A stretch of 64,000 nt of DNA, from the UHGV virus genome UHGV-0057547. One strand, given 5' to 3'. The position numbers and the translations under genes are program-made. The notes beneath the pieces were generated by a model. That model saw only the letters and a program-made list of their open reading frames with translations, was not told where the DNA came from and searched no databases. The DNA is from a virus. Shown here one piece after another: positions 2,126 to 44,164 of the stretch. The number at the start of each line of letters is the position of its first letter. Position 1 is the stretch's first letter.

Positions 2126-2338
2126 CAAGCGAGATATAATGTCTCCTATATTAAGTGATTAGTATAGCAAATCTTTTGAATTGCTGGAAACTCCTAAAGC
2201 TCAATTCACTACAACGTAAGGTTAAATCCTAAGCGTGAATGTTACGAAAGTAGAAAAAAGTAATTGAGATGGTATAAGGTTAAATCCTAAGTACTTTTAC
2301 AATGGACAATCAGCAGGTAAGATTTATATTTATTTTAC

Positions 2339-2368
2339 TTTACTTTTAATAATTAATTTCGTATAATT
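2339..2368 (+). promoter_or_regulatory. intron-internal sigma70-like promoter
   Basis: TTTACT 2339-2344, 18-nt spacer, TATAAT 2363-2368, SD GGAGGTG, ATG 2392. The same about 80-nt block recurs at 6497-6579 and 21421-21503. Confidence 0.5.
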
Positions 2369-2391
2369 TAAGTAAATGGAGGTGAAATATT

Positions 2392-3327
2392 ATGGCATGG
2401 AAATATGAAGATGTGAAAAAGTATGTAGAATCATTTGGTTATAAATTAATATCAAAAGAATATAAGACTTGTAAAGATAAACTTCATTTAATGTGTCCTA
2501 ATGAAAGTGATTTTATTGTAAGATTTGATAATTTTAAAAATGCTAAACAACGTTGTAAATGTGATAAATGTAAAGGTAGAAATCCAAGAATGTTTTCTTA
2601 TGAATATGTAAAAGAATACATAGAAAAAGAAGGGTATAAATTAATATCAAAAGAATACAATGGAAATAAAAAACGTATAGAATTAGAATGCCCAAATGGT
2701 CATAAATGGAAAGTAAGATTTACTGATTTTAAAAATGGAAGAAGATGTTATTATTGTTCTTGTTGTTATAAACCTACCATTGGAGAAATTAGAATGAGAT
2801 TATCAAAATATGGTTATACATTGTTATCTGAAGAATATAAAAATGCAAATGAAAAAATTAATGTAAAATGCCCTAATGGTCATAAATATCCTACTACATA
2901 TCATAATTTTGATAATGGTAAAAGATGTCCATACTGTTATAATAAATATAGTAAAGGTGAGTATAGACTTATAAATTTATTTAATAATTATAAAATAAAC
3001 TATAAACATCAATATATTTTTAATGATTGTAGAGATATAAATCCTTTGCCATTTGATTTTTATTTATATGATTATAATTGTTGTGTAGAATTTGATGGAG
3101 AAGGGCATTATGAACCTAGAAATTGGAATGGAGCTTCAGATGAAAAAGCAATAGAAACATATAAAATAACGGTATTACATGATAAAATTAAAACACAATA
3201 TTGTAAGGATAATAGCGTAAAACTCATAAGAATACCATATTGGGAATTTAATAATATAGAAAACATTATTTGTCAAGAATTAAATATTAAAAGAAAACAA
3301 AGAAGAAAAGGTAATAAATTAAAATAA
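2392..3327 (+). CDS. intron-encoded homing endonuclease: 4 tandem Zn-ribbon-like modules + C-terminal Vsr/DUF559-like PD-(D/E)XK nuclease
   Basis: Repeated module Y(V/I)E..GYKLIS.EYK.....L...CPNGH.....F.NFKNG.RC..C x4. C-terminal block PLPFDFYLYDYNCCVEFDGEGHYE...KLIRIPYWEFNNIENII. Confidence 0.6.
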   Translation: MAWKYEDVKKYVESFGYKLISKEYKTCKDKLHLMCPNESDFIVRFDNFKNAKQRCKCDKCKGRNPRMFSYEYVKEYIEKEGYKLISKEYNGNKKRIELECPNGHKWKVRFTDFKNGRRCYYCSCCYKPTIGEIRMRLSKYGYTLLSEEYKNANEKINVKCPNGHKYPTTYHNFDNGKRCPYCYNKYSKGEYRLINLFNNYKINYKHQYIFNDCRDINPLPFDFYLYDYNCCVEFDGEGHYEPRNWNGASDEKAIETYKITVLHDKIKTQYCKDNSVKLIRIPYWEFNNIENIICQELNIKRKQRRKGNKLK

Positions 3328-3484
3328 ATATGAATAAACTTCAACGACTAAGTATCCTAGTAGTCTAGGTAGAGGAAGAGGTCTTATATTAATAAGATTG
3401 TGATATAGTCTGCTCTCATGCGAAAGCATGAGCAGTTCATAAAAGAACGGATAGAATAGTAACGATATTCTATTGAACATAAGG

Positions 3485-3617
3485 AATCTTATAAAGGAGA
3501 AGATAGCTAAAGAGCTATGTTCTCAATCGAAAATGTTAAATAGAGAAATTGCTAAAGTAGTCACTGGTACTAATGAAACAGTGGTTATCTTTAACAATGG
3601 TAGTACCATTCAAGTTT
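3485..3617 (+). CDS. terL: large terminase subunit, exon 4
   Basis: Frame from 3485 reads NLIKEKIAKELCSQSKMLNREIAKVVTGTNETVVIFNNGSTIQV until TAA 3617-3619. Consistent with the post-Walker-A region of TerL ATPases. Confidence 0.5.
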
Positions 3618-3826
3618 AATGCTTTGCACATTGAGTAATTAGTGTGTATAACCGATTGAATTGCTTGTAAATCCTAAAGCTAACTAAACTACAACGTAAC
3701 CTGAAAAGGTAAGCGTGAATGTAGCGAAAGCAGAAAAAATTAGTTAGATGGTATATGGTTAAATCCTAAGTACTTTTACAATGGAAGTCTAGCAGGGAAG
3801 ATTCTAAAATTATTTAAATTAAATAT

Positions 3827-3855
3827 TTGACTTTTAATAATATAAGTTGTATAAT
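3827..3855 (+). promoter_or_regulatory. intron-internal sigma70-like promoter
   Basis: TTGACT 3827-3832, 17-nt spacer, TATAAT 3850-3855, SD GGAGGTG, ATG 3878. Confidence 0.55.
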
Positions 3856-3877
3856 ATAAATAAATGGAGGTGATAAT

Positions 3878-4834
3878 ATGTCAAAAATAATGTGGGATGA
3901 AAAATCAATAAAAAAATTTGTTGAGCAATATAATCATGAATTCATTGAAATTATAGAATTTAATAACATAAGAAGTTTAATAAAAATTAAATGTAAAAAT
4001 AAAAAACACAAACCATTTGAAATAAAATTTACATCATTTAGACAAACTATGCTAAAAAATGGAAATTCTTGCAAAGAATGTAAAAAAGAAGCAAAAATGT
4101 TAAAAAGAGAAGATGTAGAAAACCTAATTAGAGAAAGAGGACTTATTTGGCTAGAGGGAGAGTATATAAGTAATGATACAAAAAATTTATTAGTATGGTG
4201 TGGAAATATTAATCATGAACCATTTTTAACAAGTCAAAATTATATATTATGTAATAATGGTAATAGTTGCAAAAAATGTGGTATAGAAAATAATGCAAAT
4301 AACAAAAGACTTTCATATGAGTATGTATATAACTATATAAAAAATGAGGGTGATGAACTATTATCAAAAACTTATGTAAACAATTCACAAAATTTAAAAA
4401 TTAAATGTGGTAAATGTAATAATGTATTTGAAACTTCATTTGGGCACTATCAAAATAAAGATAGAAGATGCTTATGTAAAGCTCAATCAAGAGGAGAATA
4501 TGAAATTAAACGAATATTTGATAAATATAATTTAATTGAAAATGTAGATTATGAATGTCAAAAAAAATACGAAGGATTAATTGGGGTTGGTGGTAGAAAA
4601 CTTTCTTATGATTTCTATATCAATAATACATTAATAGAATATCAAGGTTCTTATCATGATGGAACTGCTAGAAAACAAACAGATGAAGGATATGAGATAC
4701 AAAAGGAACATGATAAAAGAAAAAAAGATTATGCTAAAAATAATAACATTAATTTATTAGAGATATGGTATTGGGACTTTAATAATATAGAAAATATACT
4801 TATAGAAAATTTTAATTTAAATAATAATGAATAA
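3878..4834 (+). CDS. intron-encoded homing endonuclease, Zn-ribbon modules + divergent Vsr-like nuclease domain
   Basis: CKECK/CKKCG/CGKCN Cys pairs in repeated modules. C-terminal block KLSYDFYINNTLIEYQGSYHDG...LLEIWYWDFNNIENILIENF. Confidence 0.55.
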   Translation: MSKIMWDEKSIKKFVEQYNHEFIEIIEFNNIRSLIKIKCKNKKHKPFEIKFTSFRQTMLKNGNSCKECKKEAKMLKREDVENLIRERGLIWLEGEYISNDTKNLLVWCGNINHEPFLTSQNYILCNNGNSCKKCGIENNANNKRLSYEYVYNYIKNEGDELLSKTYVNNSQNLKIKCGKCNNVFETSFGHYQNKDRRCLCKAQSRGEYEIKRIFDKYNLIENVDYECQKKYEGLIGVGGRKLSYDFYINNTLIEYQGSYHDGTARKQTDEGYEIQKEHDKRKKDYAKNNNINLLEIWYWDFNNIENILIENFNLNNNE

Positions 4835-4999
4835 CCTTCAACGAACAAGTATCCTAGTAGTCTAGGTAGTGGTCGGTATCCTTAGTAAAGGATAATGATA
4901 TGTTCTGCTCTCATGTGAAAGCATGAGCAGTTTATGTGATTAATTAAAATTCACAAATAAACGGTATAAGGTATAACGAACCTTATATGAACACAAATG

Positions 5000-5028
5000 C
5001 AGTAAACGCTTCTCAAAATACAAGAGGT
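5000..5028 (+). CDS. terL: large terminase subunit, exon 5 (29-nt micro-exon, arginine-finger region)
   Basis: Reads (S/L)VNASQNTRG. It ends in AGAGGT, the same GGT context as exon 2. Joined to exon 6 it gives NTRG-LRCHVLVVDEY, the (S/T)xRG...hhhhDE arrangement common in TerL ATPases. Confidence 0.5.
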
Positions 5029-5086: not shown

Positions 5087-5956
5087 GTGATTGAATTGAA
5101 ATGGACTAAGGATATGGAGCAATACTTAATTGATAATTATAATAAATTAACTATTGAAGAATTAGCTAAAAATATAGGAGTAACAAAATCCTCAATAATA
5201 AATAAAGCTTTTTCATTAAAAATAACAAATAATGTTAAAAATAAAGATAGAGGAAATATTAATATATTTAAAAATATAAATTCAGAAGAAAGTGCTTATT
5301 GGTTAGGATTTATATATGCTGATGGTTATATAGTTAAAAGTGAAAATGATAAAAAACATCATAATTATGAATTAGGTATAGAACTTCAAGAATCTGATAT
5401 TTCTCATTTGAAAAAATTTAATAAAATATTTAATGATTATTATAAAATAAAAACAAGAATCAGAAAAATGGATTCATTGGATATTTTAAATGGAAATGAA
5501 GTTTCAAATAGATTAAATAAAACTTGTTTGATAAGAATATATAATAAAGAAATAGTTAATGATTTAATAAAAAATAATATTGTTCAAAATAAAACTAATT
5601 CAGATATATTTCCTATTATAGATGATGACAATATGTTTTTACATTTTTTAAGAGGATATATTGATGGCGATGGTTCTTATGTTGTTGATAGTAAAAATAG
5701 ATACATAATATCAATTCAAGGTAATAATAAAAAATGTTTTGAATTTATATCTAATAAGTTATTAACAAGTTTTAATATTAATTCATATATAACAAAAGAT
5801 AAAACAGGTTGGAAATTAAATATAAGAAAAAAAGATGATGTTTTAAAATTAATAGATTTAATGTTTAATAATTCAAATATTTATTTAGATAGAAAATATG
5901 AGAAAGTAAAAGATATGAAAAAAGCCGTCTTTAATAGAAATATTAAAGATAATTAG
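5087..5956 (+). CDS. LAGLIDADG homing endonuclease (two LAGLIDADG motifs); start uncertain (GTG 5087, TTG 5096 or ATG 5111)
   Basis: AYWLGFIYADGYI and LRGYIDGDGSY motifs. C-terminus NRNIKDN is shared with the second LAGLIDADG ORF at 31569. Confidence 0.7.
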   Translation: MIELKWTKDMEQYLIDNYNKLTIEELAKNIGVTKSSIINKAFSLKITNNVKNKDRGNINIFKNINSEESAYWLGFIYADGYIVKSENDKKHHNYELGIELQESDISHLKKFNKIFNDYYKIKTRIRKMDSLDILNGNEVSNRLNKTCLIRIYNKEIVNDLIKNNIVQNKTNSDIFPIIDDDNMFLHFLRGYIDGDGSYVVDSKNRYIISIQGNNKKCFEFISNKLLTSFNINSYITKDKTGWKLNIRKKDDVLKLIDLMFNNSNIYLDRKYEKVKDMKKAVFNRNIKDN

Positions 5957-6275: not shown

Positions 6276-6325
6276 TTAAGATGCCATGTACTCGTGGTTG
6301 ATGAGTATAGAATGATACAAGGAGT
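6276..6325 (+). CDS. terL: large terminase subunit, exon 6 (50-nt micro-exon with Walker B)
   Basis: Reads LRCHVLVVDEYRMIQG(V). VLVVDE is a Walker B hhhhDE motif. It ends with the GGAGT 5' strand of the family A P1 hairpin. Confidence 0.6.
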
Positions 6326-7865
6326 AATATATAGCTCCCTATGTTTATAAAAAGCATAGAAAAACTCTTTAATTGCTGGAAACTCCTAAAGTCCTATAAA
6401 CTACAACATGATTAGAAATAATGAGTGTGAATGTTACGAAAGTAGAAAAAATTATAGGAATGGTATATGGTTAAATCCTAAGTACTTTTACAATGGACAA
6501 TCAGCAGGTAAGATTTATATTTATTTTACTTTACTTTTAATAATTAATTTTGTATAATTTAAGTAAATGGAGGTGATAAAATGTTAAAATATAATAATGA
6601 TTATATTATCAATTATATAAATGAAAATTATAAAAATTTTAAAATAGTAAGTATAGATGGTAATGGAAAGGAAGCTATTGTAACTTTATGGTGTGGCGTT
6701 AGTGGTCATAAACATATACAATGCACATTTGCTAATCTTTTATATAAAGATAGTTTTCACTGTAGAGAATGTAAAAAAGATGATAAGATAAACGAAATAA
6801 AAAAGATTATAGGTGATGAATATCAAATAATCTCAATAGATTATATTAGTAATGATTGGATAAGAAGTAGAGCTATATTATGGTGTGGAATAGAAGGACA
6901 TGAATATATTGATGTATCTTTTAAATCAATAATAAATGGAAATATTATTGGATGTAAATTATGTAGAAAAAATAAACATATATTAAAAATAAAAGAAAAT
7001 GTAGAAAAAGTTAATAAAAAATTAATAGAAGTAAAAAAATATAATGAAAAAGATTATCACAAATCAAGAATAATAGTATCTTGTGGTAATGAAAAACATG
7101 AATTAATAGAGACTTCTTTAAATAAAATTATAAATTCAAACGTTAAATGTAAGGATTGCATAAAAGAAGATAATATTAATAAAATGATGCTATATATAAA
7201 TTCTACTCAATACAAATTTAATAAAATTGTAAAATATTGTGAATCAGATTATATAAAAAGTATGGTAGAAATAACATGTCCAAAAGATGAAACCCACATA
7301 TTTACAATGAGATTTTCTAATTTTAAATATGAAGGTAAAAGATGTCCTCATTGTGGTATGACTTATGGTGAACAAGAAGTTGCAAATGTATTAAAAAGAT
7401 ACAATATAAAATATAAATTTCAATATAAATATAAAGATTGTAGATTTATAAATCCTCTTCCTTTTGATTTTTATTTACCTGATTATAACATATTAATTGA
7501 ATACGATGGTAAACAACATTATGAATCAGTAGATTTATTTGGTGGAGAAAAAGGTTTTAAATATACAAAACAAAATGATGGAATAAAAAATCAATACTGT
7601 AAGAATAATAATATAAAATTAATAAGGATACCATATTGGTGTTTTAATAATATAGAAGAAATATTAATTAAAGAATTAAAAGTAAACATAAATAAATATG
7701 AATAAACTTCAACGACTAGAACGTAAGTTCGTAGGGTGTAAGTGATTGACACTCGAAATGGGAGTTACCTAATAATAGGTAGTGATATAGTCTAGTCTCA
7801 TATGAAAGTATGAGCAGTTCATAAGAGAACGTACATAACGTAGCGAATTATGTAGAATATAACGG
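6326..7865 (+). mobile_element. group I intron (family A) with homing endonuclease gene; TerL intron 6
   Basis: P1-like GGAGT/GCTCC hairpin 6321-6337. Hairpin CTATGTTTATAAAAAGCATAG. P 6371-6382. Q 6499-6508. ORF 6581-7705. R 7707-7719. S 7783-7792. Terminal hairpin TACATAACGTAGCGAATTATGTA then GAATATAACGG| at about 7864-7865. Confidence 0.75.
6581..7705 (+). CDS. intron-encoded homing endonuclease, Zn-ribbon modules + Vsr/DUF559-like nuclease
   Basis: Modules with WCG..GH...C.F....CReCKK and CK.C. C-terminal block PLPFDFYLPDYNILIEYDGKQHYE...KLIRIPYWCFNNIEEILIKEL. Preceded by promoter TTTACT at 6530-6535 and TATAAT at 6553-6558. Confidence 0.6.
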   Translation: MLKYNNDYIINYINENYKNFKIVSIDGNGKEAIVTLWCGVSGHKHIQCTFANLLYKDSFHCRECKKDDKINEIKKIIGDEYQIISIDYISNDWIRSRAILWCGIEGHEYIDVSFKSIINGNIIGCKLCRKNKHILKIKENVEKVNKKLIEVKKYNEKDYHKSRIIVSCGNEKHELIETSLNKIINSNVKCKDCIKEDNINKMMLYINSTQYKFNKIVKYCESDYIKSMVEITCPKDETHIFTMRFSNFKYEGKRCPHCGMTYGEQEVANVLKRYNIKYKFQYKYKDCRFINPLPFDFYLPDYNILIEYDGKQHYESVDLFGGEKGFKYTKQNDGIKNQYCKNNNIKLIRIPYWCFNNIEEILIKELKVNINKYE

Positions 7866-9465: not shown

Positions 9466-10364
9466 GTGAGTGAAGAAAAAAAGCAAAAGAAGTTGTTTGC
9501 AGAAACTTCTGTAGCTAACAATGCACAAAAATATACAACTAAACCAGTTAAATATAGTGCTAGTGAAATAATGGGATTCTTAGAAGACCCACAAGCAAAT
9601 GCACTTAACTTACAAAAAGCTAGTATTTGGTTGTATTATAATAGTGGTATATACAATAGAATAATTAATAACTATGCTGGTATGAATATCTATGATTTAT
9701 ATTTATATCCAACTACAATTAGTAAATTTTCTAAATCAAAAAGAAAAATAACACCTGATAAATTATATAAAGATTATTTAGATATAAGTAATTTATTAGA
9801 AAGAATTAGTTGGAAATCAAATTATCGTAATATAGGAGTTAACCTTATGATACAAGGAGAAGTTTTCTTATATGATGTATCTGATAATCAAGGTACTATA
9901 TTAAAAGAAATACCAACTGAAATATGTAAAATATGTAAGGTTATAAATGATAATTTATATAAATATGCAATCAATGTAAATAAATTAGGTACAGCAGAAT
10001 ATTATTCAATGATGCCTTTAGGATTACAAAGATTATATGACCAACATAAAGCAGGTTCACTATCACCTGAACAATATTTAGGAACTGCTGGTTCAGGTTA
10101 TGTAATAGTAGATGACCCTGAAGCAATATGTTTAAGTTTAAATAATATGACTTCAACAAAATCTGTTCCAACTTTATCTTATTTATTTCCTTCATTATTA
10201 AGATTAATGGAAGAAGAAGAAAATGAAGTTGTGGAAAATAAAGCTAATAATTTAAAAATGATACATATGCAATATGATGTAGATGAAGAAGGCGAATCAA
10301 GAATAGCTGAAGCTGACCTTATAAAAATGCATAATTCAGCTAAAGCCAATTTACCAGTAGGAGT
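9466..10364 (+). CDS. portal protein, exon 1 (3' boundary +/- 1 nt)
   Basis: GTG 9466. Long N-terminal portal-like sequence. Ends at AGGAGT, which forms a P1-like hairpin with GCTCC at 10372-10376. The stop at 10387 lies inside the intron. Confidence 0.55.
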
Positions 10365-11679
10365 AACATATAGCTCCCTATGTTTATAAAAAGCATAGAA
10401 AACTCTTTTAATTGCTGGAAACTCCTAAAGCTCAATTCACTAAAACATAATCTGAAAATGATAAGTGTGAATGTTACGAAAGTAGAAAAAAGTAATTGAG
10501 ATTACCCAAGGTTAAATCCTAAAGGTGAATGAATGGACAATCAGCAACCAAGATTTTAAGTTTAATTCATTGATTTTTAATATAATATAAAATAAAGTGA
10601 GGTAATTAATATAGCATTAAAATGGACTGAAGAAAAAATAATAGAATTTATAAATAATGAAAATTATATAGTAAAAAAAATAATAAGTGGAATTGGAAAA
10701 GAAACGAGATTATTGGTATGGTGTGGTAATCCTAATCATAAACCATATAAAGTTATTTTTAATAATTTTAAAAGAGGAACAAGATGTCAGTCTTGTTATG
10801 ATGAAAGAAGAAGAAAATGGACTGATGAAATTATTAAAGAATATTTAGAAAGTTATAAATATAAACTAATAGAAATTATAAAATCTAAAGGCGTTCAATC
10901 TATTGTAAAAATAAAATGTCCTAAATGTGGATATGTATATACTATTAAATTTGATACATTTAGAAATGGTCGTAGATGTATGCAATGTTTTCTTAAAGAA
11001 AATAGAATTAGTGAAGAAGAAATAAAAAAAATAATAAAAGATAATAAAGATATATTAATAGATATTGAGTATCATAGTTTAGATAGTATTTTATATTTAT
11101 ATTGTAATAAATGTAAAAAAAATTATCCTATTACATTTTATTGGTATTTAAAAGGCGGAAGATGCAAGTTTTGCAAAGAATCAAGAGGGGCTAGAAAAAT
11201 AAGAGAATATTTAGAAAATAAACAATATAATTTTAAACAAGAATTTAGAATTAAAGAATGTAGATATAAATTTCCATTACCATTTGATTTTATGGTTACT
11301 ATAAATGATAATATTATTTTAATAGAATTCGATGGGTTAGAACATTATGAACCTATTGAGTATTTTGGAGGTATAGTTAAATTTAATGAAAGAAAAAGAA
11401 ATGATAATATTAAAAATCAATATTGTAAAGATAATAATATAAAACTTATAAGGATTCCATATTGGGAATATGACAACATAGATGAAATATTAAATAAAGA
11501 ATTAAACTTAAAATAAGGTTCAACGACTAGAGCGTAAGCTCGTAGAGTGTAAGTGATTGACACTCGAAATGGAGAGTATCTAATAATAGGTAGTGATATA
11601 GTCTAGTCTCATATGAAAGTATGAGCAGTTCATAAGAGAACGGATTAGGAGTAGCGACCCTAATTGAATACAACGTTTG
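10365..11679 (+). mobile_element. group I intron (family A) with homing endonuclease gene; portal intron
   Basis: P 10410-10421. Q variant AATCAGCAACC 10539-10549. ORF 10713-11516. R 11518-11530. S 11595-11604. Terminal hairpin ATTAGGAGTAGCGACCCTAAT then GAATACAACG(TTTG)|. The 3' splice site is 11675 or 11679 depending on the donor phase. Confidence 0.75.
10713..11516 (+). CDS. intron-encoded homing endonuclease (Zn-ribbon modules + Vsr-like nuclease); true start probably upstream (non-ATG, about 10608-10611)
   Basis: The frame is open from 10608. SD GTGAGGT at 10596-10602 is followed 8 nt later by ATA GCA TTA AAA TGG ACT GAA GAA, parallel to the 21491 ORF. C-terminal block FPLPFDFMVTINDNIILIEFDGLEHYE...KLIRIPYWEYDNIDEIL. 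Confidence 0.55.
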   Translation: MVWCGNPNHKPYKVIFNNFKRGTRCQSCYDERRRKWTDEIIKEYLESYKYKLIEIIKSKGVQSIVKIKCPKCGYVYTIKFDTFRNGRRCMQCFLKENRISEEEIKKIIKDNKDILIDIEYHSLDSILYLYCNKCKKNYPITFYWYLKGGRCKFCKESRGARKIREYLENKQYNFKQEFRIKECRYKFPLPFDFMVTINDNIILIEFDGLEHYEPIEYFGGIVKFNERKRNDNIKNQYCKDNNIKLIRIPYWEYDNIDEILNKELNLK

Positions 11680-12541: not shown

Positions 12542-13098
12542 ATGAATAACAAACTTAGATTACCTATTAAAAGATTTGAAAGTACAGATGAAGTTTTAGT
12601 TAATACAAACTTTAAAAAAGTTAAAATATACATTATGCATACAGGTGAAAACCTTAATGGTTCTGTATTTTCAGTAGATAGTATAAATGATTCAATAGAT
12701 ACACTTGCAAACATTCCAATATTGGCATTTGTTGAAAAAACTGATGGACAAGATAACAAAGATTTTGCAGGACATGAAACTGATTTAGATATATTTACAG
12801 ATGAAGATGGAACAATTAAAGTAAGAGAATACTATAAAGAAGTACCTATTGGAGTAATACCTGAAAGTAATGATTATTTCTTTGAAGAAAAAGATGGAGA
12901 AACATACTTAGGGTGTTATGGTTACATATGGAAATGTTATTCTAATGATGCTTATGACATATTAGAAGAAGACCAAGAAAAAGAAGTCTCTATGGAAATT
13001 TATATAAATAATTGTTCTTATGATAGAAAACAAAGATGTAATATTAATAAATTTGAATTTCTTGGAGTTACAGTGTTAGGTGCTAAATACCCAGGAGT
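12542..13098 (+). CDS. prohead protease/scaffold fusion protein, exon 1 (putative prohead protease domain)
   Basis: ATG 12542 with SD GAAAGGAGGTG. The exon ends GGAGT, the 5' strand of the P1-like hairpin GGAGTGATTAGCTCC at 13094-13108. Confidence 0.45.
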
Positions 13099-13502
13099 GA
13101 TTAGCTCCCTATATGGAGTGATTCATATAGCAAACTCTCTGAATTGCTTGTAAATCCTAAAGCTAACTAAACTACAACGTGATTGGAAACAATGGGCGTG
13201 AATGTGGCGAAAGCAGAAAAAATTAGTTAGATGGTATATGGTTAAATCCTAAGTACTTTTACAATGGAAGTCTAGCAGGTAAGATTCTAAATTACTATAA
13301 GTGATATGAATAAACTTCAACGACTATTGAAATAATTGTAAGAACCTTATTACAATTAAAGTAAAGTACATTCAAGTGAATGGAAGTAGAGAGTGTCTTA
13401 TTTAATTAATGTAAGATAATGATATAGTCTCAACGTTTAGCGAAAGCTAAAGAAGTTCATAAGAGAACTGCATAAGAATAACGAACTTATGTGAAGATAT
13501 TG
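13099..13502 (+). mobile_element. group I intron (family A), ORF-less; prohead protease-scaffold intron
   Basis: P variant AATTGCTTGTAAA 13142-13154. Q-like AGTCTAGCAGG 13270-13280. R CTTCAACGACTAT 13315-13327. S GATATAGTCT 13431-13440. Terminal hairpin CATAAGAATAACGAACTTATG then GAAGATATTG| at 13502. Confidence 0.75.
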
Positions 13503-15296: not shown

Positions 15297-15737
15297 ATGT
15301 CAGAATTAAATATAACTGATGTAAGAGATATGGCTTACAGTCTATATAAAGGTAAAACTGCTAATTTCGATGCAGAATCTGCAAATGAAGCTATAAAAAA
15401 TATAATACTTAAAACAGCTGGATGTGAAGATGGTTGGGATATGTATAAATTCATGGATAACAAATACAAAGTATTTGCTATAATGAGAGAAATATTAACT
15501 CCAGTTGTAGCTGAAAATGTTTTAGCTAGATTTGAATCTTGGGTAGACATAGAAGATATAGCTTTAGGTGATACTAAAGACTTTGAAGTTATGAACCAAG
15601 AATTATTTGAAATAGGATATGTAGCTGATGGTACTTCTGAATTAAGAAGACAAAACTTAACTCATGGTAAAATTACTATGACTGGTTTCCAATTAGGTGC
15701 TAAATTATATACTGAATTTGATGACTTTAGAAGGGGT
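15297..15737 (+). CDS. major capsid protein, exon 1
   Basis: ATG 15297 is 10 nt after SD AAGGAG. It ends at AGGGGT, which pairs with GCCCC at 15756-15760. This covaries with the GGAGT/GCTCC pairing of the other family A introns. Confidence 0.55.
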
Positions 15738-17070
15738 AACTTAGTTTACTAGACAGCCCCCTATGTTTGTAAAAAGCATAGCAAATCCTTTTAATTGCTG
15801 GAAACTCCTAAAGCTCAATTCACTACAACGTAAGGTTAAATCCTAAGCGTGAATGTTACGAAAGTAGAAAAAAGTAATTGAGATTACCCAAGGTTAAATC
15901 CTAAAGGTGAATGAATGGACAATCAGCAGGGAAGATTTTAATTAACACTTAATTTTTTATAAGTTTATGAGTATAATATAAATAAGTGGAGGTGATGAAA
16001 ATGACAAGAAAGATTTGGAATGAAATTACAATAAAAGAATTTATAGAAAATGAAACAAATTATAAATTCATATCAATGGTTAAATTAAATGGAATGAAAT
16101 CAATAGTGCTAGTATGGTGCGGTAATACTAATCATAAACCTTATAAAGTTCGATTTGATGCATTTAAAGGTACTTCTAAAAAAGAAGGAACGAGATGTGA
16201 ACAATGTAGAAGAGAAAAGGATACTATTTGGACTAAAGATGAAATTATAAAATATGTAGAATCTCAAGATTATAAATTTATAAGATTTGTAAAATTTAAT
16301 AAATATGCAAGTATAATAGAAATTCAATGTAATAAAGGACACGAATCATATGAAACATACTTTAGTAATTTCTATAATAATAGAAGATGTTTTCAATGTC
16401 ATATAATATGGTCTAAAAAAGATATTATTAATTTTATAGAATCTCAAAATTATAAATTTATAAGATTTATAACATATGAAAAAAATAATAGTTTAATAGA
16501 GATAAAGTGTCCTAAAGGACATATGAATCAAGTTAGATTTAGAAAATTTAAAGAAGGAACTAGATGCACAGAATGTAATAAGTCTAAAGGTGAGGAAAAA
16601 GTAAAAGATATATTAAAAGAAATGTGTATAGATTTTAAATCACAATACAAATTCAAAGATTGTAAATGTAAAAAAGAGTTGCCATTTGATTTTTACATAC
16701 CTTCATTAAATATTGCAATAGAATATGATGGAATACAACATTTTGAAATATTACCACATTGGGGTGGTATTGATAAACTTATAGAAACTAAAATACATGA
16801 TGAAATAAAAACACAATATTGTAAAAGAAAAAGAATAAAACTTATTAGAATTCCTTATTGGGAATTTAAAAATATAGAAAACATACTTATAAAAGAATTA
16901 GTGTTAAATTAGAATAACCTTCAACGACTAGAGCATAAGCTCGTACACTCAAGTGGGTGGAAATGGAGGATACCTAGAAATAGGTAGTGATATAGTCTTG
17001 TCTCATGTGAAAGCATGAGCAGTTCATAAGAGAACGGATTAGGAGTAACGACCCTAGTCGAAAATAAACG
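15738..17070 (+). mobile_element. group I intron (family A) with homing endonuclease gene; major capsid intron
   Basis: Hairpin CTATGTTTGTAAAAAGCATAG. P 15793-15804. Q 15921-15930. ORF 16001-16912. R 16918-16931. S 16989-16998. Terminal hairpin ATTAGGAGTAACGACCCTAGT then GAAAATAAACG| at 17070. The acceptor is ambiguous (17050, 17070 or 17092). Confidence 0.75.
16001..16912 (+). CDS. intron-encoded homing endonuclease (Zn-ribbon modules + Vsr-like nuclease)
   Basis: ATG 16001 is 7 nt after SD GGAGGTG. TATAAT at 15972-15977. C-terminal block ELPFDFYIPSLNIAIEYDGIQHFE...KLIRIPYWEFKNIENILIKEL. Confidence 0.6.
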   Translation: MTRKIWNEITIKEFIENETNYKFISMVKLNGMKSIVLVWCGNTNHKPYKVRFDAFKGTSKKEGTRCEQCRREKDTIWTKDEIIKYVESQDYKFIRFVKFNKYASIIEIQCNKGHESYETYFSNFYNNRRCFQCHIIWSKKDIINFIESQNYKFIRFITYEKNNSLIEIKCPKGHMNQVRFRKFKEGTRCTECNKSKGEEKVKDILKEMCIDFKSQYKFKDCKCKKELPFDFYIPSLNIAIEYDGIQHFEILPHWGGIDKLIETKIHDEIKTQYCKRKRIKLIRIPYWEFKNIENILIKELVLN

Positions 17071-21107: not shown

Positions 21108-21253
21108 ATGGCTACACTATTTGCTATAAAAGATGCAATAGATTTAAAAATAACTAAAAAAGGTGAATCAGCAGTTTTCACTACAATAGACTACTTAAAT
21201 GAATGTCAAATACAAATGGACTCAGAACAAGTATATGCTCTTAAAAAAGGAGT
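21108..21253 (+). CDS. major tail protein, exon 1
   Basis: ATG 21108 with SD AAAGGTG. Ends AGGAGT with P1-like hairpin GGAGTAATTTGCTCC. Confidence 0.5.
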
Positions 21254-22596
21254 AATTTGCTCCCTATGTAAGTAAATTGCATAGCAAATCCTTTTAATTG
21301 CTGGAAACTCCTAAAGCCTTGCAAACCACAACGCAACTTGAAAAAGTAAACGTGATGGTGACGAAAGTAGAAAAAATTGTAAGGATTACCCAAGGTTAAA
21401 TCCTAAAGGTGAATGAATGGACAATCAGCAGGTAAGATTTATATTTATTTTACTTTACTTTTAATAATTAATTTCGTATAATTTAAGTAAATGGAGGTGG
21501 TAGATATAAAATGGACAGAAGATAGAATTAAAGAATATGTTGAAAATCAAGGATATACTTATATAAAAAGAATTGAAGGAAAAGCAAGTATGTCGATTAT
21601 AGAAGTTTGGTGTGGAAATCTTAATCATAAATCTTATAGGGTTATGTTTAAAAATTTTAAAGGTAATAAAGCAAAAAAACCAACAAGATGCCCATATTGT
21701 AGTAAAAATAAAAAATTAACCATTGAAGAAGTAAGAGTATTTGTTGAAAAATATGATTTTAGTTTATTATCTGTAGAATATATTAATAATAGAACTCCAT
21801 TAACACTACAATGTAAAAATGGACATATATTTTCAATAAGATTAGATAATTTTAAACAAAGTTTAAAATGTCCAATGTGTTATAGACATTATGGTGCTTA
21901 CACCGAAGATGAAGTTAAGCAATACCTTGAAAGTTTTGGTTATGAATTACTGAATAAATATATAGATATACATAAAAAAATAATAATTAAATGCCCTAAA
22001 GGTCATATTTATAAAACTTCATTTAATAGTTTTAAAAATAATGGAACTAGATGTTCTATTTGTAGAAAATCAAAAGGTGAAGAAAAAATATCTAAAACAT
22101 TAAAAGAATTAAAAATAAAATTCATAAGTCAATTTGTATTCGATGATTGTCAATATAAAACATATCTTCCATTTGATTTTTATTTACCTGAATATAATAT
22201 ATTAATTGAATACGATGGGATTCAACACTATGAACCTGTAGACTTTGGTGGTAAAGGAAATGAATGGGCAAATAAACAACTCGAATTAACAAAAATAAAA
22301 GACAATATAAAAACACAATATTGTGAAAATAATAATATAAAACTTATAAGAATATCTTATTGGGAATTTGATAGCATAGAAAATATATTAAGTAAAGAGT
22401 TAAAAGTAAGAAAATAAATATGAATAAACTTCAACGACTATTCCGTAAGGAAGTAAAGCCACAAGCTATTGGTGGAAGAAATGGAGGATACCTAGAAATA
22501 GGTAGTGATATAGTCTGTTCTCATGTGAAAGCATGAGCAGTTTATATTGAATGAGTATAAACGATGTATGTGTAGCGAACATATGTGAACACAAAG
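21254..22596 (+). mobile_element. group I intron (family A) with homing endonuclease gene; major tail protein intron 1
   Basis: P 21295-21306. Q 21423-21432. ORF 21491-22417. R 22429-22440. S 22507-22516. Terminal hairpin ATGTATGTGTAGCGAACATAT then GAACACAAAG| at 22596. Confidence 0.75.
21491..22417 (+). CDS. intron-encoded homing endonuclease (Zn-ribbon modules + Vsr-like nuclease); start ambiguous
   Basis: The listed ATG is part of the SD ATGGAGGTGG. The likely initiation is about 21497-21506 (GTG or ATA). C-terminal block YLPFDFYLPEYNILIEYDGIQHYE...KLIRISYWEFDSIENILSKEL. Confidence 0.55.
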   Translation: MEVVDIKWTEDRIKEYVENQGYTYIKRIEGKASMSIIEVWCGNLNHKSYRVMFKNFKGNKAKKPTRCPYCSKNKKLTIEEVRVFVEKYDFSLLSVEYINNRTPLTLQCKNGHIFSIRLDNFKQSLKCPMCYRHYGAYTEDEVKQYLESFGYELLNKYIDIHKKIIIKCPKGHIYKTSFNSFKNNGTRCSICRKSKGEEKISKTLKELKIKFISQFVFDDCQYKTYLPFDFYLPEYNILIEYDGIQHYEPVDFGGKGNEWANKQLELTKIKDNIKTQYCENNNIKLIRISYWEFDSIENILSKELKVRK

Positions 22597-22651
22597 ATAA
22601 CTATATATCATTCTCAAGTGGTAGAACAGGAACATTAACAATGAACTGTAA
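22597..22651 (+). CDS. major tail protein, exon 2 (about 55-nt micro-exon; 3' boundary approximate)
   Basis: Reads (V)NYISFSSGRTGTLTMNC(N). An in-frame TAG at 22653 forces a donor before it. It lies between two introns. Confidence 0.4.
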
Positions 22652-23026
22652 CTAGTACAGCGTATGTAAAGAAATTTACATAGGACACAACCTTAAAACC
22701 AGTAACTCCTAAAGCTCAACAACTACAACAAAGGATAGAATCAGAAACCTTTGTGAATGTGAGGAAACTCTGAAACAATAGTTGAGATGATATATGGCGA
22801 GAGCCTAAGTATTGTAACAATGGATGTTTGGTCGCCAAACTTAGAAATAAGAAGGTCAAACGACTATGATTTGAAAGAATCATAAAGCCTCAAGCGAATG
22901 GAGGAAGAAATGGGTTGCCCCTAACAGATAATGCTGAGGGTGAAGAAATAGTCTAGTCACTCTAGGAAACTAGGTGCTTAGAATTGACTAAGGTTTATAA
23001 GTTGCGATTATAAATAAATATTAACG
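22652..23026 (+). mobile_element. group I-like intron (divergent family A subtype), ORF-less; major tail protein intron 2
   Basis: Degenerate P AAAACCAGTAACTCC at 22695-22709. R GGTCAAACGACTATG at 22854-22868. S GAAGAAATAGTCTAG at 22941-22955. The 3' terminal block GTGCTTAGAATTGACTAAGGTTTATAAGTTGCGATTATAAATAAATATTAACG| is shared with the elements ending at 84 and 41131. Confidence 0.6.
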
Positions 23027-23381
23027 TCAAGTAATGGATGAAGACTTCTTATGTATGATGCTTGGTGCTACTAAAGGTGCAGATGGTAAAATATCTGTAA
23101 CATCTTCAGTTCCAAACCAAAGTTATACAGCAGAAGGTACTTTCAGAACTACTTCATTAAATGGAGACCAATACAAAAAAATAAAATTCTACAACTTAAA
23201 AGCACAAGTTTCAGCTGACTTAACTTTATCTGCTTCTGATGTTTCTGAATTCTCATTAGTATTAGATATAATGGCTGACGATGCTGGTAAAATATTAGAT
23301 ATAGAAAACACTGCTGGTGGAGTATCTGCTGGATTTAATGAACCTGAAATTGTTTCTATAAAAGCTAAAGCTGATAAATAA
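23027..23381 (+). CDS. major tail protein, exon 3
   Basis: The frame is open from 23025. MMLGATKGADGK... resembles siphovirus major tail proteins. Followed by a strong terminator. Confidence 0.5.
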
Positions 23382-41476: not shown

Positions 41477-42978
41477 AAATTAGCTCCTTTTACTAAGTAA
41501 TTAGTATTAAAACTCATTGAATTGCTGGAACTTCCTAAAGCTAACTAAACTACAATATGGCTAGAAATGGCGAATATGAATGTGGCGAAAGCAGAAAAAA
41601 TTAGTTAGATATTCATATGGTTAAATCCTAAGTGAATATAAATGGATAATCAGCAGGTAAGTGCCTAAATTTATTTTATAAAATAATTGACTTTTAATAA
41701 GATAAAACGTATAATATAAGTAAAGAAAGGGGTTGAGATGATGAAAAAACATGATTATAAATTTATTAAAGAATATGTTGAAAGTTTTGGATATAAATTA
41801 TTATCAACAGAATATAAAAATGCTAATACTAAATTAAAAATAGAATGTCAAGAAGGACATATGTTTGAAAGAACATTTAGTAAGTTTAAACAAACTCAAA
41901 ATTGTCCATATTGCACTAATACTAGAAAATGGAATATTTTAGAAATAAAAGAGTATTTAAAAAACATAGGTTATACATTATTAAGTACAGAGTATAAAAA
42001 TAATCAAACCAAATTAGATATGATTTGTTCAGAGGGACATAAAATACAAATGACTTTAGGAAATATCCAACAAGGTAAAAGATGTCATATATGTTCAAGA
42101 AAAACAGCTTCAGAAAAAAGAAAACATGATTATGAATTCGTTAAGCAATATATTGAAAATGAAGGTTATAAATTATTATCCAAAACATATATAAATCAAG
42201 ATGAAAAATTAAAAATAAGATGTTCGAAAGGTCATATATTTTTAATGAGTTTTTGTAAATTTAAACAAGGTCAAAGATGTCCTCAATGTTGTAAAAATAA
42301 AAAAATGTCTCATAAAGAATTTTTAGAAAAATTCTATAATCAAAATTACAATACTGAAAATATAGAAATATTGAGTGAATATATAAATGCTAAGACGAAA
42401 ATAAAATGTAAATGTCTAAAAGACGGTTGTATTTGGTATGTTATACCTAATAGTTTACTAAACGGAACTGGTTGTCCTCAATGTAACGAATCTAAAGGAG
42501 AAAAAAGAGTTGCTAAATATTTAGATAGTAGAAATATAGAATATGAAAGACAATATAAATTTAATGATTGTAAAAGTAACAAAGAGTTACCTTTTGATTT
42601 TTATATACATAGTTTAAATATAGCTATAGAATATGATGGTGGACAACATTATATGATAGTAAACCATTTTGGAGGACTTAATGGATTTATAACTACTAAA
42701 ATACATGACACTATAAAAACACAATATTGCAAAAATAACAATATTCGTTTAATAAGAATACCATATTGGGATTTTGATAATATAGAAAATATACTAAGTC
42801 AATTATTAAATATAAATATGAATAAATAAGGCAAAACTTCAACGACTATATATACTAGTAGTCTAGTTAGTGGTGAGCATCCTTATGGGATGATGATATA
42901 GTCTACTCTCATGTGAAAGCATGAGCAGTTCATAAGAGAACGGTATAAGGTTTAACGAACTTTATATGAATATTAAGG
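41477..42978 (+). mobile_element. group I intron (family A) with homing endonuclease gene; TMP intron 6
   Basis: P 41520-41531. Q 41648-41657. Promoter TTGACT 41687-41692, 17-nt spacer, TATAAT 41710-41715. ORF 41738-42829. R 42837-42849. S about 42891-42903. Terminal hairpin TATAAGGTTTAACGAACTTTATA then GAATATTAAGG| at 42977-42978. Confidence 0.75.
41738..42829 (+). CDS. intron-encoded homing endonuclease (4 Zn-ribbon modules + Vsr-like nuclease)
   Basis: C-terminal block ELPFDFYIHSLNIAIEYDGGQHYM...RLIRIPYWDFDNIENILSQLL. Confidence 0.6.
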   Translation: MMKKHDYKFIKEYVESFGYKLLSTEYKNANTKLKIECQEGHMFERTFSKFKQTQNCPYCTNTRKWNILEIKEYLKNIGYTLLSTEYKNNQTKLDMICSEGHKIQMTLGNIQQGKRCHICSRKTASEKRKHDYEFVKQYIENEGYKLLSKTYINQDEKLKIRCSKGHIFLMSFCKFKQGQRCPQCCKNKKMSHKEFLEKFYNQNYNTENIEILSEYINAKTKIKCKCLKDGCIWYVIPNSLLNGTGCPQCNESKGEKRVAKYLDSRNIEYERQYKFNDCKSNKELPFDFYIHSLNIAIEYDGGQHYMIVNHFGGLNGFITTKIHDTIKTQYCKNNNIRLIRIPYWDFDNIENILSQLLNINMNK

Positions 42979-43456: not shown

Positions 43457-44164
43457 ATGGCAAAGCCTTATTATTTAAAATTTAAAATATGTAGTACTTG
43501 TAAAAATATATTACATATAAGTAAATTTAATAAAAATAAAAAATGTAAATATGGTGTGTCATCTCGATGCAGAGAGTGTGATAGAAAATATTATAAAAAA
43601 TACTATGGGAGTAATAAAGAAAAAATAATAGAAACAAATAAAGAATATTATAAAAACAATAAAGAAAAAATTTTAGAATACCATAAAGAATATTATGAAG
43701 ACAATAAAGAAAAAATCTATAAAAAAACAAGACAATATGCAATTGATAATAAAGAGAAAACTAATGAATATAAAAGAAAATATAAAAAAAATAATCCTAA
43801 TAAAACATTTAATAACAGTATAAAAAGAAGATTAAATGAAAAAACACAAGGTAATGGAATTACTAAAGAACAATGGTATGAAATGATGGGATTTTTTGAT
43901 TGGAAATGTGCTTATAGTGGAGAATACATAGGTGGAGATAATGATAATAGAACTATAGACCATATTGTACCTTTAAACAATGATGGAGAACATGAAATTT
44001 GGAATTGTGTACCTATGTATCAACCTTACAACAGTGGTAAACGTGATAGAAATATGTTAGAATGGTATTTAAAACAAGAATATTTCTCAATAGAAAAATT
44101 AACTAAAATATATGAATGGAGAATATATGCATATAATAAATGGGGTGATATAAATGGCAAGTAG
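43457..44164 (+). CDS. free-standing HNH endonuclease
   Basis: SD AAAGGAGAAAGG. HNH block CAYSGEYI...RTIDHIVPLNNDGEHEIWNCVPMYQPYNSGK. It is not inside an intron-like element and overlaps the next gene by 11 nt. Confidence 0.65.
   Translation: MAKPYYLKFKICSTCKNILHISKFNKNKKCKYGVSSRCRECDRKYYKKYYGSNKEKIIETNKEYYKNNKEKILEYHKEYYEDNKEKIYKKTRQYAIDNKEKTNEYKRKYKKNNPNKTFNNSIKRRLNEKTQGNGITKEQWYEMMGFFDWKCAYSGEYIGGDNDNRTIDHIVPLNNDGEHEIWNCVPMYQPYNSGKRDRNMLEWYLKQEYFSIEKLTKIYEWRIYAYNKWGDINGK

Follow-up and report, generated by a model that had tools for sequence, protein, structure and literature searches.

Group I introns are nearly always annotated by the rule that the upstream exon ends in a U standing opposite a G of the guide, and the introns of T4 td, the Staphylococcus phage Twort and the kayviruses have U as their last exon base. 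The exceptions documented earlier are IStrons only, in which the shift can be attributed to the target choice of the transposon. Group B (IS607) IStrons insert after sites ending in GG, and the junction U is missing from IStron-free alleles (Tourasse, Stabell & Kolstø 2014, PMC4227781). For BcISt1 of Bacillus cereus, reverse transcription PCR recovered ligated exons without this U, and the full-length circle contains it (PMC4227781). CboIStron of Clostridium botulinum splices scarlessly after TGGG, in cells as well as in vitro (bioRxiv 10.1101/2023.11.20.567912), and wild-type IStron reads are 98% precise with a strict terminal G (PMC13521648). A plain IA2 group I intron with the homing site GGAGG is known from Turicibacter sanguinis PC909 and Turicibacter sp. 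HGF1 (PMC4227781). Here, a stretch of 64,000 nucleotides (nt) of the virus genome UHGV-0057547, referred to as the window, was analysed. Its phage structural genes are interrupted by group I introns, a set of which, named family A, appears to share the displaced donor of the IStrons.

Based on the comparison of alleles, we consider it about 80% probable that the upstream exon of the family A introns ends one base before the textbook site, the element removed being U…G. Such a donor shift is already established for the nearest relatives, the group B IStrons, and is not new in kind. The novelty would lie in its occurrence in ordinary introns and in unusual numbers, as around 11 introns of this one phage would have a shifted donor, some of them with an endonuclease-like open reading frame (ORF) and others without.

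Related contigs, designated by L numbers, carry different intron subsets, so that for each intron an uninterrupted allele is available for comparison; boundaries were set in this way (Table 1). At eight sites (I4, I5, I7, I10 and I12 of the window, and L005:11291, L019:7805 and L016:18216 among the relatives), the T following GGAG, GAGA, CAAG, GGAA, GAGG or TGGG is missing from the intron-free allele, and the exon resumes with the base 3' of the conserved terminal G. What was inserted is thus U…G, preceded by an exon ending in G, A or C. Introns found in relatives but not in the window read GGAA^T…G^C, GAGG^T…G^C and TGGG^T…G^C (^ marks the splice junction), and at the TGGG site (L016:18216) the alternative register leads to a TAA stop. 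At the tested sites the exon-final base is G, or A in I4, contrary to the last-exon-U rule. This rule is followed by the canonical-donor introns of the window, I2, I3, I6, I8, I14 and I16, whose U is present in the intron-free allele or represents a synonymous change. In the tail tube gene, the KGDNYISF of the intron-free homologue is obtained only with GGAG^T…aaG^ATAAC, while a U(-1) donor produces a stop or an Asp-to-Val change.

The reading frames point in the same direction. With U…G ends for the shifted family and canonical ends for the other introns, every gene forms one open frame, amounting to 488 amino acids (aa) for the portal, 593 for the prohead protein, 339 for the capsid, 184 for the tube and 4330 for the tape-measure protein (TMP); TerL is open too. 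U(-1) donors combined with the same acceptors truncate all six genes (TerL, portal, prohead, capsid, tube and TMP). An earlier note on this DNA had reported the loss of phase for the portal, prohead, capsid and TMP introns. These four do stop prematurely, but the list was too short, since the introns at 6321 and 21249 behave in the same way, as does the one at 30704 once the correct exon frame, given by the mini-exon AAATTACGCTGG, is used. Its suggestion that a donor one nt earlier (G at -1, intron starting with U) would restore the phase is supported by the open frames and by the T missing at the eight sites. The junctions it proposed for the portal (10363/11676) and the capsid (15736/17071) yield proteins collinear with the intron-free portal alleles and with 120 uninterrupted capsid homologues, respectively. 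The junction follows the first codon base in terminase, portal and prohead and the second in the capsid gene.

Table 1. Positions in the window of the family A introns, and of I18 of the sister subfamily, with junctions (^) and uninterrupted alleles
Feature	Gene	Positions	Strand	Junctions and P1	ORF	Uninterrupted allele and remarks
P1 5' strand of I7 (GGAG)	terminase, exon 3' end	6321..6324	+	complementary to CUCC 6335-6338		L013/L015 read CAAGGAG^GTTTTGAT
I7 (flagged intron)	TerL	6325..7864	+	CAAGGAG^T…aacG^GTTTTGAT; first base U6325 pairs with G6334 of guide GCUCC 6334-6338; last base G7864	6581-7705 (+), endonuclease-like, between Q and R elements	CAAGGAGGTTTTGAT; T6325 missing from L013/L015; TerL open with these ends
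I4	terminase	2135..3484	+	GAGA^U ataat G UCUC … cataagG^AAUC (DNA: GCGAGA^T…aagG^AATCTT)	2392-3327 (+), CapR / treble-clef zinc-finger domains (Pfam)	L004/L015 read GCGAGAAATCTT; single register fits
I5	terminase	3615..4999	+	CAAG^U ttaat G CUU … acaaatG^CAGUAAAC (DNA: CAAG^T…aatG^CAGTAAAC)	3878-4834	L012 reads ATTCAAGCAGTAAAT; allele CAAGCAGTAAAT
I9	portal	10364..11675	+	GGAG^U aacatata GCUCC … gaatacaacG^UUUGUG	10713-11516	L004/L014/L015 read GGAGTTTGTGT
I10 (405 nt)	prohead protease/scaffold	13098..13502	+	GGAG^U gatta GCUCC … gaagatattG^CUAUGGGG (DNA: GGAG^T…attG^CTATGGGG)	ORF-less	L021 reads CCCGGAGCTATGGGGG; allele GGAGCTATGGGG; protein 99% identical
I11	major capsid	15737..17070	+	GGGG^U …GCCCC … gaaaataaacG^CAGAACU	15986-16912	120 uninterrupted homologues read FRRGR(T/V)DF
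I12	tail tube	21253..22596	+	GGAG^U aattt GCUCC … gaacacaaaG^AUAACUAU	21491-22417	L002 encodes KGDNYISF (GGT GAT AAC)
I15	tape measure	30708..31088	+	CUGG^U tagaatta GCCAG … gaatattaaG^GAAUAAC; preceded by mini-exon 30696-30707	ORF-less	L017 reads GCTGGCAATAAT
I18	tape measure	39739..41131	+	AAGGC^U aaattt AGCC … aaatttttcG^UAAAGAAG	40011-40913	L018/L019/L020 read AATAAAGCCAAAGAAGCT
I19	tape measure	41476..42978	+	GGAG^U aaatta GCUCC … gaatattaagG^UGUUUAC	41738-42829 (+), CapR, treble-clef zinc finger	TMP frame (4330 aa) stays open with no other removed length

The pairing between exon and guide was evaluated in a curated set, in which the insertion points had been set independently of folding and the four exon bases were compared with the four bases abutting P2. 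Watson-Crick pairs occupy 51 of 52 positions over 13 elements, and 27 of 28 over the seven tetramer types GAGA, CAAG, GGAG, GGGG, CUGG, GGAA and GAGG. When the guides were shuffled among the sites, only 1 of 5040 permutations equalled the observed complementarity. The P1 helix is real, and its covariation is much stronger than the evidence on which the earlier note had proposed it. Opposite the first U of the intron stands the G immediately 5' of the guide. The window contains five copies of GGAGT N4-10 GCTCC, where 0.04 would be expected by chance (none of 100 shuffles contained five). Among the eight sites listed previously, GGAGT…GCTCC was recovered at 6321, 10360, 13094, 21249 and 41472, GGGGT…GCCCC at 15733 and CTGGT…GCCAG at 30704. 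The hairpin of the flagged intron extends to 6338, where GCTCC ends, one base beyond the 6337 given before. The site at 39749 had to be given up: no GCCAG follows its CTGGT, and intron-free L018, L019 and L020 place the insertion 11 nt upstream (AAGGC^UAAAUUUAGCC…UUUUUCG^UAAAGAAG). An automatic hairpin search (4 bp plus U•G, 5' of the P element) was rejected, as it mostly picked P2 and its pattern is matched by 37% of random 90-nt segments.

The ribozyme core is well preserved. P3 pairs at 6/6 positions in all 11 aligned introns, with eight different sequences and compensatory changes; P4 pairs at 6-7/7 positions in ten of them and at 5/7 in I13, and P7 at 5/6. The order P3-P4…P4'-P7-P3'-P8-P7' expected of an IA2 group I intron is present. 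The P7 sequence is CGACUA/UAGUC(U) throughout the 11 aligned introns and retains the guanosine-binding G-C pair, and all U…G boundaries end in G. The conserved acceptor described earlier was found at all confirmed sites: a 10-11 nt tail of the pattern GAAnAnnnnG follows a hairpin whose loop is of the GCGA/AACGA type. Scans of the whole window against Rfam returned no match, either at the gathering threshold or at E <= 10. A local 500-nt scan of the ORF-less prohead intron I10 with RF00028 gave 46.9 bits (E 6.9e-11) over the full model length, just under the gathering score of 50, and this accounts for the lack of matches across the whole window. In practice, these introns escape annotation pipelines altogether, as the whole-window Rfam result shows. 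Judged by these sequence features, family A consists of IA2-type group I introns. Inspection by eye for a P10 pairing of the 3' exon with the P1 loop revealed nothing convincing in terminase, portal, prohead or capsid.

When the ribozyme was compared with the phage collection, the top match came from Clostridium botulinum phage D-1873. It is a 'Group I catalytic intron' that precedes a transposase, in other words an IS607-type IStron (transposase matches PF01385/PF07282; RF00028 61.9 bits). A P1 of the form GAGG^U…(47 nt)…GCCUC can be drawn for it, the same design as in one of the phage introns. The alignment extends along the whole length, with 75% identity over 58% of the prohead intron; the homology is clear and places the family A ribozyme in the same clade as that of the IS607-type (group B) IStrons. 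As in the IStrons (AGGG, TGGG, GAGG), family A inserts after purine-rich sites ending in G, the first base U pairs with the guide G and is directly followed by the loop, this U•G lies one pair from the splice site, and the element ends in G. Family A is nevertheless not an IStron. Its ORFs have no match to IS607 TnpA/TnpB or to a transposase family and, when present, lie inside the ribozyme between Q and R, whereas the TnpA/TnpB ORF of IStrons is located 3' of the core. Furthermore, the tails are AACG, ATTG, AAAG, AAGG or AATG instead of the CGG end of IStrons, the -1 base can be A (I4), and the introns are presence/absence polymorphisms in phage structural genes. The long AU-rich inverted-repeat terminal stem of IStrons does not appear in the aligned 3' ends of family A, although no search was aimed at it. 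The Turicibacter intron, compared through the remark in PMC4227781 only, is likewise an ordinary intron and not an IStron, and its site is essentially the GGAG/GAGG found here.

Family A also resembles the canonical IA2 introns of T4 td, Twort and the kayviruses, with which it shares the core elements P AAUUGCUGG, Q CAGCAGG, R UUCAACGACUA and S GAUAUAGUCU; over the 19 window introns, the classical elements are P AATTGCTGG, Q CAGCAGG, R AACTTCAACGACTA and S GATATAGTCT. The ORF in a peripheral loop and the P7.1/P7.2 and P9.x extensions are shared as well, and stretches of the core are 77-94% identical to introns of Staphylococcus and Listeria phages. The core of the phiIPLA-RODI tail-tube intron reaches 87% identity, but its record carries no annotated junctions from which the boundaries could be calibrated. 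Unlike the canonical introns, family A has no final U in the exon.

In the mechanism proposed here, four exon bases pair with a matching guide that abuts P2, and the first U of the intron pairs with the G 5' of this guide, the resulting U•G closing the P1 loop. The first transesterification would attack the bond 5' of the wobble U, placing the 5' cut before and not after it, and the 3' cut would follow the conserved terminal G. That the RNA is cut at these positions is suggested by the analogy with IStrons and by the fact that no other cut would yield functional genes. The shift may be caused by the position of the U•G, which adjoins the loop rather than lying inside the helix. In the canonical introns whose P1 was examined (I2, I3, I8 and I14; L004:3220 and L017:8088 in relatives), 1-5 pairs extend beyond the U•G, while in most shifted introns it directly adjoins the loop. 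The correlation of loop-adjacent wobble and shifted cut proposed by Tourasse et al. mostly holds here, which is suggestive. A ruler model, with the cut at a fixed distance from the P1/P2 junction, was discarded, the spacing being 4 nt in family A and 5-6 nt in its sister subfamily.

Several observations weigh against a uniform shift of the donor. In I4, I12 and L016:18216, a single A-U pair could form past the U•G, and in I15 two extra pairs are possible, so that the association with loop-adjacent wobbles is not clean. The portal intron I9, I13, I18, I19 and L004:16141 are ambiguous by one T, the same removed length being fixed in each case. I7 and I15 could be canonical if the next G were used. 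At I15, U…G31088 (giving GGG) and canonical U(-1) with G31089 (giving GGT) both fit the data; the earlier inclusion of 30704 among the shifted sites is therefore supported in its hairpin but ambiguous in its junction. The capsid gene is the only site with a T after GG in the intron-free alleles (seven loci with GGT AGA). In the two lineages that carry the intron, the sequence is AGG GG[T…G]C AGA, a synonymous marker on either side moving with the intron, and a U…G element requires that a synonymous T-to-C change travelled with the intron in two lineages. The capsid protein is the same under either boundary and collinear with the 120 homologues. The RTDF and RVDF capsid lineages (L024-L026; window 15731-15737, 17071) share the markers AGG GG…C, and the intron-free alleles of both read AGA GGT. 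These intron-linked markers look like a short co-conversion tract left by homing.

The same spliced product would result if the cut were made canonically after U and the U were then trimmed from the 5' exon before ligation. We regard this as improbable, and to our knowledge no trimming activity exists in group I introns. BcISt1 circles lacking the first base have been seen, indicating that the bond after U is also reactive; the full-length circle, however, has U joined to the terminal G, as expected if the 5' splice-site bond precedes U (PMC4227781).

A canonical donor after U could alternatively be combined with a 3' site one base past the conserved G. The removed length would be the same, the frames would stay open, and neither the capsid (GGT AGA without the intron) nor the T-ambiguous sites would require a substitution. 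This appears less probable than trimming. The introns would end in G, U, C, C, A or similar, and since P7 keeps the guanosine-binding G-C pair, no chemistry is known for a terminal base other than G; in IStron variants, the terminal base selected was a G in every case (PMC13521648). The proteins would moreover be altered where the intron-free alleles are 93-99% identical (Gly-to-Val in I7, Ala-to-Val in prohead, Asn-to-Tyr in I4, Asp-to-Val in tube and Thr-to-Ile at L005:11291), and L016:18216 would acquire a TAA stop.

Comparably slim is the chance that U(-1) and a terminal G are both kept, each intron using a different, non-conserved acceptor G. This alternative, also considered in the earlier note, fits 6321 with G7865, at the cost of a Gly-to-Val change, and possibly 30704 with G31089, but fails elsewhere. 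In the portal, the in-phase G is 4 nt away and its use loses a Cys present in all intron-free alleles; in prohead it is 7 or 11 nt away, and in the capsid and TMP I19 about 20 nt. Residues conserved in the 120 capsid homologues and in L021 would be deleted. The exon sequence after the conserved G is identical to that of the intron-free alleles at every base.

Least credible of all are introns canonical at both ends, favoured by the textbook rule alone, which would leave an extra U in the ligated exons (…CCAGGAGU… in prohead) and genes that are either dead or dependent on recoding for rescue: truncation would affect all six essential structural genes, the arrangement is kept in several 173-198 kb relatives, and the junction codon phases vary without a shared slippery site. 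For this last reason, +1 ribosomal frameshifting on canonically spliced mRNA was rejected as well.

If the donor of family A lies before the U, as preferred here, application of the exon-final-U rule would break six essential phage genes. The shift in about 11 ordinary introns with intron-free alleles and seven guide/exon variants makes it a property of the ribozyme clade. Family A would thereby offer a comparative set together with a 405-nt ORF-less test substrate, the prohead intron, which could address the question left by Tourasse et al. of why the cut moves by one base.

A sister subfamily, with the P element AAUUGCAGG in I1, I13, I17, I18 and relatives, likewise has exons that do not end in U, and bases other than U can open the intron. 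The first-base pair is U•G, U-A, G•U or an A/G mismatch, and the last exon base is Watson-Crick paired. Specifically, A stands opposite G in the intron ending at 84 (UGG^A…GCCA), the intron at 32746 begins with a G that faces U, and those at 22649 and 39739 (I18) begin with a U that faces A. Members with the P element AATTGCAGG are located at window 22649-23026, 32746-33126 and 39739-41131, in the intron ending at 84, and at L012:2816-4252. It is conceivable, though we would not favour it, that this IA2 clade gave up the U•G as the marker of the 5' splice site and that helix geometry sets the cut instead. In that case, the introns could invade any 3-4 nt guide match, and the IS607 IStrons would have borrowed their ribozyme from the homing-intron pool of phages.

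The five GGAG sites share nothing in their flanks beyond GGAG, and their guides are identical. This fits either a spread guided by reverse-splicing-like site choice or a selection for splicing competence after endonuclease-driven insertion. Introns are distributed as a mosaic, in that five related contigs from one metagenome each carry a different subset, present or absent at identical sites. I10 is ORF-less in the window and ORF-bearing in L007, and I19 is ORF-bearing in the window and ORF-less in L019/L020. The intron population looks as if it were actively exchanging. In the comparison of the window with L004/L005/L007/L009/L012-L020, sites occupied only in relatives correspond to window 41258, 22632 and 29624 and to a second tube site near 23120. 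Compared with window 32746-33126 and 6325-7864, L016:18216-18589 combines a AATTGCAGG-type 5' half with a family-A-type 3' tail (GAATATAAACG). Intron halves therefore recombine, and the 'families' of the earlier note are mosaics rather than clean lineages.

The window is AT-rich (~27% GC), with every gene on the + strand, and contains the structural module of an SPbeta-like phage; the Pfam families YonB (capsid), YonD_N, YomU, YomV, YomW and YomX match the genes of near-identical contigs. Its nearest relatives are IMG/VR contigs of 173-198 kb from a single metagenome (3300045988) and shorter gut-metagenome contigs. Within about 43 kb (window 1-43000), 19 group I introns interrupt the module: TerL has seven, the tape-measure gene six and the tail tube two, while portal, prohead and capsid contain a single one each. 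An additional partial intron ends at window 84, just 5' of the terminase gene. We know of no phage region of comparable intron density. Very short exons separate neighbouring introns at 30696-30707 (12 nt, AAATTACGCTGG), 5000-5028 (29 nt), 6276-6324 (49 nt) and 22597-22648 (52 nt). The 12-nt exon must serve as the 3' exon for one ribozyme and as the P1 partner for the next.

The intron ORFs encode putative endonucleases, with weak Pfam matches to CapR, DUF4379, HNH_2, PvuRts1I-like and DUF2726. LAGLIDADG endonuclease genes lie in at least two canonical-donor introns (I6 and I16; window 5087-5956 and 31569-32351). The ORFs of the shifted-donor family carry CapR and treble-clef zinc-finger domains with weakly nuclease-like C-termini. 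There appears to be a link between the kind of ribozyme and the kind of endonuclease. Compared with L016, L017 and L019, the window has an insertion of 697 nt (43457-44153) outside any intron, in the gap that separates the tape-measure gene from the gene after it; this insertion contains a free-standing ORF of 235 aa with weak HNH matches.

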